The position numbers and the translations under genes are program-made. The notes under the pieces were generated by a model. The model made no database searches. It was not told where the DNA came from and saw nothing but the letters and a program-made list of their open reading frames with translations. This document shows, piece by piece, positions 12,098 to 12,185 of a DNA stretch of 64,000 nucleotides (within the stretch, counting starts at the first letter, position 1; the number at the start of each line of letters is the position of its first letter). The stretch comes from Chlamydiia bacterium (GTDB lineage Bacteria; Chlamydiota; Chlamydiia; Chlamydiales; RGXB01). Where the stretch lies: assembly GCA_040382515.1 (NCBI GenBank), contig JBEIFH010000001.1:1-64000 (forward strand), given 5' to 3'.

Positions 12098-12185
12098 CGG
12101 AAGAGGAGGGATTCGAACCCTCGATACGCGGTTAACGTATACACGCTTGCCAAGCGTGCTCCTTAAGCCACTCGGACACTCTTCC
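12098..12185 (-). tRNA. tRNA with serine (class II) body but anticodon GGC (Ala)
   Basis: GGAAGAG/CTCTTCC acceptor, G73, D-arm TGTCCGAGTGGCTTAAGGA, anticodon arm CACGC-TTGGCAA-GCGTG, long variable arm ATACG..CGTAT, T-arm GAGGG-TTCGAAT-CCCTC. Confidence 0.92.

Follow-up and report, generated by a model that had tools for sequence, protein, structure and literature searches.

A tRNA gene lies on the reverse strand (12098-12185) of the window, the whole 64,000-nucleotide stretch that was analyzed. Its downstream neighbor is nrdR (11587-12045, reverse strand; Zn ribbon and ATP cone), which is syntenic in congeners, and its divergent upstream neighbor is a gene for a znuA-type zinc-binding protein (12265-13269, forward strand). 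Rfam model RF00005 matched 12098-12185 (55.4 bits, E 3.2e-09), and ARAGORN called tRNA-Ala(ggc) at 12097-12186 (reverse strand). The forward strand reads gcc at 12149-12151, which corresponds to an anticodon GGC that would read GCC and GCU. The gene, which encodes no CCA, folds into a cloverleaf of the 7/5 type whose variable stem has 5 bp; 25 of 25 pairs are Watson-Crick. In the 3′ acceptor strand (12098-12105), U70 pairs with A3 (12183), so that G3:U70 is absent, and the discriminator is G73. A3:U70 is a feature of serine tRNAs. The long variable arm (12124-12140; 5-bp stem and 7-nt loop) is the main SerRS identity element according to PMC6827378, which describes SerRS as dependent on this arm rather than on the anticodon, and the D arm (12160-12176) contains C11:G24. 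The long variable arm, G73 and C11:G24, given as serine elements in PMC6827378 and PMC5389517, are all intact, whereas the alanine features G3:U70, A73 and a short variable loop are replaced by A3:U70, G73 and the long arm.

The isotype was assigned by identity to orthologs. The gene is identical at 87 of 88 bases to the syntenic tRNA-Ser(GGA) of the nearest relative (G002, about 92% DNA identity), whereas it matches the tRNA-Ala(GGC) of its own genome at 45 bases. The serine elements, A3:U70, the synteny and the near identity with relatives all mark it as a tRNA-Ser(GGA) ortholog, and the sole private base of the gene is position 36 (12149), which is C in the assembly and A in all relatives. 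Apart from one private change, A36C, the gene is the usual tRNA-Ser(GGA), present in a single copy between nrdR and znuA. The first-pass annotation had described a serine tRNA body with A3:U70, G73 and a long arm under a GGC anticodon, and ARAGORN, Rfam and the cloverleaf bear this out for the sequence as assembled. Body and anticodon thus disagree, as in a mistranslating tRNA; tRNAscan-SE 2.0 flags such disagreement as a known class (PMC8450103). The motif TTTACAATAA occurs at 12226-12240 and 12077-12091 (reverse strand), upstream of the tRNA and again after it before nrdR, and is conserved for the most part across five aligned congeners. The two copies are possibly -10 elements; a sigma-70 promoter scan returned 0 sites and did not call them. 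Elsewhere in the window, the translation of an ORF at 16629-18038 (forward strand), read by eye, has motifs resembling those of Ser/Thr kinases and, at the C terminus, short repeats.

With C36, the anticodon arm (12142-12158, reverse strand) becomes an 8-bp inverted repeat around 1 base, CACGCTTG-G-CAAGCGTG; in relatives it is a 7-bp repeat around 3 bases. The palindrome is therefore present, as had been noted earlier, but its proposed value as a sign of template switching or artefact is slight: it is weak evidence for any mechanism, because it arises with one of the three base changes that position 36 allows. Template switching at hairpins is a mutation mechanism, and at the 7-bp hairpin it could yield A36C, in favor of a real, recent mutation. 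A recurrent hairpin hotspot was rejected, since the single other non-A36 match among GTDB species is a broken remnant. Gene conversion or a mis-join with another genomic copy was likewise rejected, as the 13-17 nt arm has no second copy in either form.

The palindrome had also been suggested to collapse the anticodon loop and thus inactivate the tRNA. Folding did not support this, and loop collapse was rejected: the cloverleaf energy was -28.9 kcal/mol with either A36 or C36, the hairpin energy was unchanged as well, and the pair probability of positions 34-36 was 0. Inactivation of the tRNA by a real mutation, through loop collapse or failed maturation, which would leave the cell without tRNA-Ser(GGA), is very improbable, although the pairing probability of 32-38 rose slightly (from 0.028 to 0.074) and plastid data indicate that this tRNA can be dispensable (PMC3499367). 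The wild type already has complementary bases at U32-A38 and U33-A37, the gene carries no other lesion, and its flanks are conserved to the same degree as in congeners. Furthermore, the genome keeps a G34 tRNA in its other family boxes (Ala, Gly, Leu, Pro, Thr and Val). Since folding shows no disabling effect of C36, a variant that is real is more likely to be active and harmful than silent. The genome's true tRNA-Ala(GGC), at C1:145460-145532 (reverse strand), has a C32-G38 pair; loop-closing pairs of this type are discussed for strong four-codon tRNAs in PMC5041475.

The genome of the window (G000), that of an uncultured bacterium, comprises 1.39 Mb in 46 contigs and is 92.65% complete; the named metagenomes that best match its DNA are from lake and freshwater. 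It contains an Hc1-family gene, consistent with a chlamydia; Chlam_OMP6 was not found in it, which is uninformative. Its 16S gene extends off a contig end, and the rRNA comparison spanned 119 bases only. ARAGORN found 34 tRNA genes, including Ser(GCT), Ser(TGA) at C18:24131, Ala(GGC) with G3:U70, and the A36C gene. The tRNA inventory proposed earlier as a check thus returned Ser(UGA) and Ala(GGC), and Ser(GGA) was not among the 34 genes, so that there is no spare copy. Ala(TGC) and Ile(GAT) were likewise not among them, and are probably missing along with the unassembled rRNA operon. The SerRS and AlaRS genes are open frames.

We considered a real, very recent point mutation that became the majority in one bottlenecked population and is harmful, short-lived and not adaptive. 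As the first-pass annotation had predicted, such a variant would be charged by SerRS and would compete with tRNA-Ala(GGC) at GCC/GCU, inserting serine at a share of these codons. UCC/UCU would be covered by tRNA-Ser(UGA) through superwobbling. This active form is unlikely overall. In its favor, every serine identity element is intact, both synthetase genes are open, the normal tRNA-Ala(GGC) and tRNA-Ser(TGA) are present, and tobacco plastids were reported to be viable without trnS-GGA, surviving with a pale phenotype (PMC3499367). Against it stands a double cost, because 3.5% of codons (about 13 per gene) would be ambiguous and 2.9% would lose their decoder and be left to tRNA-Ser(UGA), and Ala-to-Ser errors were described as poorly tolerated in E. 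coli (PMC6918089).

At the syntenic locus, which the first-pass annotation had proposed to compare in relatives, tRNA-Ser(GGA) was found in 6 of 6 congeners; in G002, G004 and G006 the gene differs from that of the window at position 36 only. Across 33 tRNA genes matched between the genome and G002, position 36 was the only differing base (Arg(CCT) was without a partner in the 1.24 Mb of G002 compared). A pattern that accepts any base but A at position 36 matched 1 of 401 phylum genomes, namely the genome of the window itself. With the anticodon left free, 326 of the 401 genomes matched, and all 150 matches listed read GGA, a further 187 matches lying beyond these. JGI metagenome contigs from the genus likewise read GGA (6 of 6), but four of them are 100% identical to congener loci and thus not independent. 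Among 185,579 GTDB species, one other non-A36 match was found (locus L039), and viral contigs gave 0. A mistranslator would be expected in more than one independent genome or sample, and the base was not found in a second; the lone broken match gives no sign of hotspot behavior, which counts against a recent active mutation. The L039 sequence (197-330), from a Vicinamibacterales MAG, is a tRNA-Ser(GGA)-like remnant with a hairpin-like insert in the D loop and GGC at the anticodon position, without a 3′ half; ARAGORN found no tRNA there. In two other phylum genomes, the Ser(GGA) anticodon arm occurs in tandem about 200 bases apart (G307:C38:11468/11682 and G063:C3:285341/285521).

Contigs of four sequencing runs from four studies (X1, X5, X6 and X7), which sample the same population or nearly identical ones, were aligned to 11500-12700. 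Of the 32 contig pieces listed, 15 spanned 12149, each with at least one difference from the window; 30 further pieces lay beyond the 32. The alignment omits letters near contig ends, and 12149 was near an end in each piece, so that its base was deduced from the geometry of the pieces. In X1, a piece at 12137-12191 had one difference and a piece at 12162-12700 had none, with an overlap of 30 nt, and X6 gave the same pair. X5 gave a piece at 12141-12189 with one difference and a piece at 12160-12700 with none, again overlapping by 30 nt, and X7 gave a 165-nt piece (12002-12166) with one difference. The zero-difference flank pieces in X1, X5 and X6 were about 540 nt long. Because the one-difference piece overlaps the zero-difference piece, the difference lies within 12137-12161 (X1 and X6) or 12141-12159 (X5), and within 12141-12159 congeners differ from the window only at 12149. 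This overlap pattern indicates that the populations in these runs very probably read GGA, which argues against a recent active mutation. One of the four runs may itself be the source of the assembly, and contigs lose rare variants, so that a minority allele may go unseen. Summed depth on the tRNA was 120-320 compared with 5-9 on its flanks (X1, X5 and X6), because other organisms share its 31-mers. The RNA runs contained just 0.11-0.17 of the words.

Codon usage was compared across 878 orthologs of the genome and G002 (319,034 codon pairs). GCY and TCY replaced each other symmetrically (120 vs 127, p = 0.70), and GCC in the genome stood opposite Ala in 94.0% and opposite Ser in 1.5% of cases, with GCA and GCG alike. 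In the comparison with G004, Ser stood opposite GCC, GCT, GCA and GCG at 4.9%, 6.7%, 6.7% and 5.8%, respectively. The TCC share of serine codons was 0.220 vs 0.214 (genome vs G002), indicating no depletion, and the GCC share was 0.294 vs 0.281, indicating no avoidance. The sole significant shift was a higher GCC/GCY in the genome (836 vs 706, p = 0.001), which is opposite to avoidance; TCC and the Thr box (628 vs 549) behave in parallel. There is thus no reassignment and no codon adaptation in this genome. In accord with this, the earlier conclusion that the code is not wholly reassigned stood: GCC marks an invariant Ala in the HIDA motif of EF-G (25381-25383) and TCC an invariant Ser in the PNS motif of S12 (24514-24516).

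These data largely refute an established, selected mistranslator, or the onset of Ala-to-Ser reassignment at GCY, which we regard as extremely doubtful. Reassignment would place Ser opposite GCC/GCT and would go with loss of the competing Ala tRNA; GCC faces Ala, and tRNA-Ala(GGC) is present. Precedent exists in the yeast CUG clades and the ProX tRNAs (PMC11415595), but nothing from this genome adds to it: GCC is not avoided, there is no spare Ser(GGA), the body carries no damping change, and no sister lineage has the base. A mutation too young to leave a codon trace may be compatible with the codon data.

As to the quality of the assembly, among genes whole in both the comparison genome and an outgroup, 5 of 377 were broken in the genome of the window and 0 of 380 in G002 (Fisher p = 0.03); this outgroup-confirmed audit alone was counted, because counts without an outgroup were inflated both ways by start-codon miscalls. 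A 1-nt homopolymer indel splits each of the genes for FtsK (C4:40885-43174, indel at about 42,400) and for a PgsA-type CDP-alcohol phosphatidyltransferase (C6:22465-22954, indel at about 22,850); both genes are intact in 4 of 4 further congeners. FtsK is required for growth. FolE (C27:4194-4767) is frameshifted here; G002, G004 and G006 have it whole, G005 has it in part, and in G001 it was not found. A RibD-C-domain gene (C27) and an ABC-3/repressor fusion (C4) are also interrupted, as is an AvrB/AvrC-family ORF (Pfam PF05394, E 3e-18) on C4 that is whole in G002 (L087). Within the window, 2.8 kb from the tRNA, a 1-nt homopolymer deletion near 9367-9370 divides a SpoU/TrmH-family methylase gene (8888-9732, reverse strand) into two ORFs; the gene is a single ORF in G002, G001, G004 and G006, and the G005 match contains one TGA. 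This split gene is the closest sign of a noisy consensus to the tRNA. Since purifying selection is not relaxed (lineage N/S 0.10 vs 0.13 in G002), drift does not explain the breaks. Errors account for them better, although some may be real slippage-prone indels.

Several points weigh against a consensus error. Most of these private breaks are homopolymer indels rather than substitutions. Private amino-acid changes were not in excess (321 vs 458; radical changes 22 vs 41, p = 0.35), and raised substitution noise was not detected, a result in favor of a recent active mutation. The estimated substitution error rate of about 6e-5 per base (range 1e-6 to 3e-4) comes from a single premature stop; at this rate, only 0.14 errors are expected over all tRNA genes and 0.006 over all anticodons. 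Similarly, the flanks of the tRNA matched X1 at 1,080 of 1,080 bases, so that there is no local error cluster, and this speaks against a consensus error. The classic sequence-specific Illumina error copies the one or two bases before it near GGC or an inverted repeat (PMC3141275). An inverted repeat is present here, yet the preceding bases are GG (reverse strand) or TT (forward strand) and the change gives C or G, and this error type was rejected. The rarity of the variant also argues against a systematic hotspot. A scan of many windows will select such rare events.

Taken together, C36 is probably a one-off consensus error of a metagenome-type assembly, and the gene in the cell an ordinary tRNA-Ser(GGA). 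The base-calling artefact that the first-pass annotation had listed as an option thus remains live and, in the form of a consensus error, is favored. At the tRNA, the low-depth graph of this organism may tangle with reads from much more abundant organisms through shared 31-mers, so that a wrong base could prevail in the consensus. In that case the tRNA of the cell would carry serine and decode UCC/UCU as in all relatives. A population in which the A36C allele forms the majority is unlikely, because a serine body with an alanine anticodon slowed the growth of E. coli in the work described in PMC6918089. A real but recent and harmful strain mutation, active and inactive versions taken together, is possible but less probable. 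The tRNA had been put forward as a candidate natural mistranslator; that it is a good one was not supported: the base is private, it was probably absent in the four samplings, it left no codon trace, and the genome has other private breaks. In a further reading, which we find doubtful, a strain that is alive and probably a chlamydia has converted its sole tRNA-Ser(GGA) to a tRNA-Ser with an alanine anticodon and no damping change. It would then insert serine at a sizeable share of GCC/GCU codons and depend on superwobbling alone for UCC/UCU, a natural bacterial Ala-to-Ser mistranslator at a stage that precedes codon adaptation. If this is true, the bacterium would live with encoded Ala-to-Ser ambiguity and would show how codon reassignment begins; from work in E. 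coli, such ambiguity would seem too costly to occur in nature as a regulated trait (PMC6918089). If the base is the probable error, a lone private anticodon change in one metagenome-type assembly calls for read support, and caution is due with other findings in this genome that rest on a single base.

A search of listings of mainly open literature found no report of a natural bacterial tRNA-Ser with a GGC anticodon. The closest known molecule is the ordinary bacterial tRNA-Ser(GGA), with which the gene shares 87 of 88 bases (in G002), all stems and all identity elements, the difference being C36. The allo-tRNAs of Mukai et al. (PMC5389517) share the long variable arm, G73 and a non-serine anticodon, but are described with an 8/4 or 9/3 acceptor branch; the gene here has the canonical 7/5 branch and is not an allo-tRNA. 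In the tRNA-ProX genes of Streptomyces and Kitasatospora (PMC10404621, PMC11415595), body and anticodon disagree as they do here, and ProA also targets alanine codons. As reported, however, ProX genes are conserved, additional genes located next to a dedicated synthetase isoform and carry A33 and A34, whereas the present gene, with U33 and G34 and with nrdR and znuA as neighbors, is a housekeeping gene with a private change. The tRNA-Ser(CAG) found in yeasts of the CUG-Ser clades (PMC11415595) resembles it in that the anticodon could shift because SerRS ignores it; that tRNA arose through duplication, is clade-wide and reassigned its codon, none of which is true here. The engineered E. coli tRNA-Ser with an alanine (UGC) anticodon (Kelly et al. 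2019, PMC6918089) likewise joins a serine body to predicted serine insertion at alanine codons, but it was an extra copy with UGC that slowed growth, whereas the gene here is the sole chromosomal copy and has GGC. Human tRNA-Ser-AGA-2-3 G35A (PMC12993449) is also a natural one-base anticodon change in a tRNA-Ser; it is reported to occur in 2% of people, and Ser-at-Phe errors have been measured for it, whereas C36 is known from one assembly, in one copy, with no second sighting. If real, the variant would resemble in its action the engineered tRNA-Ser with the alanine anticodon and the human G35A tRNA-Ser.
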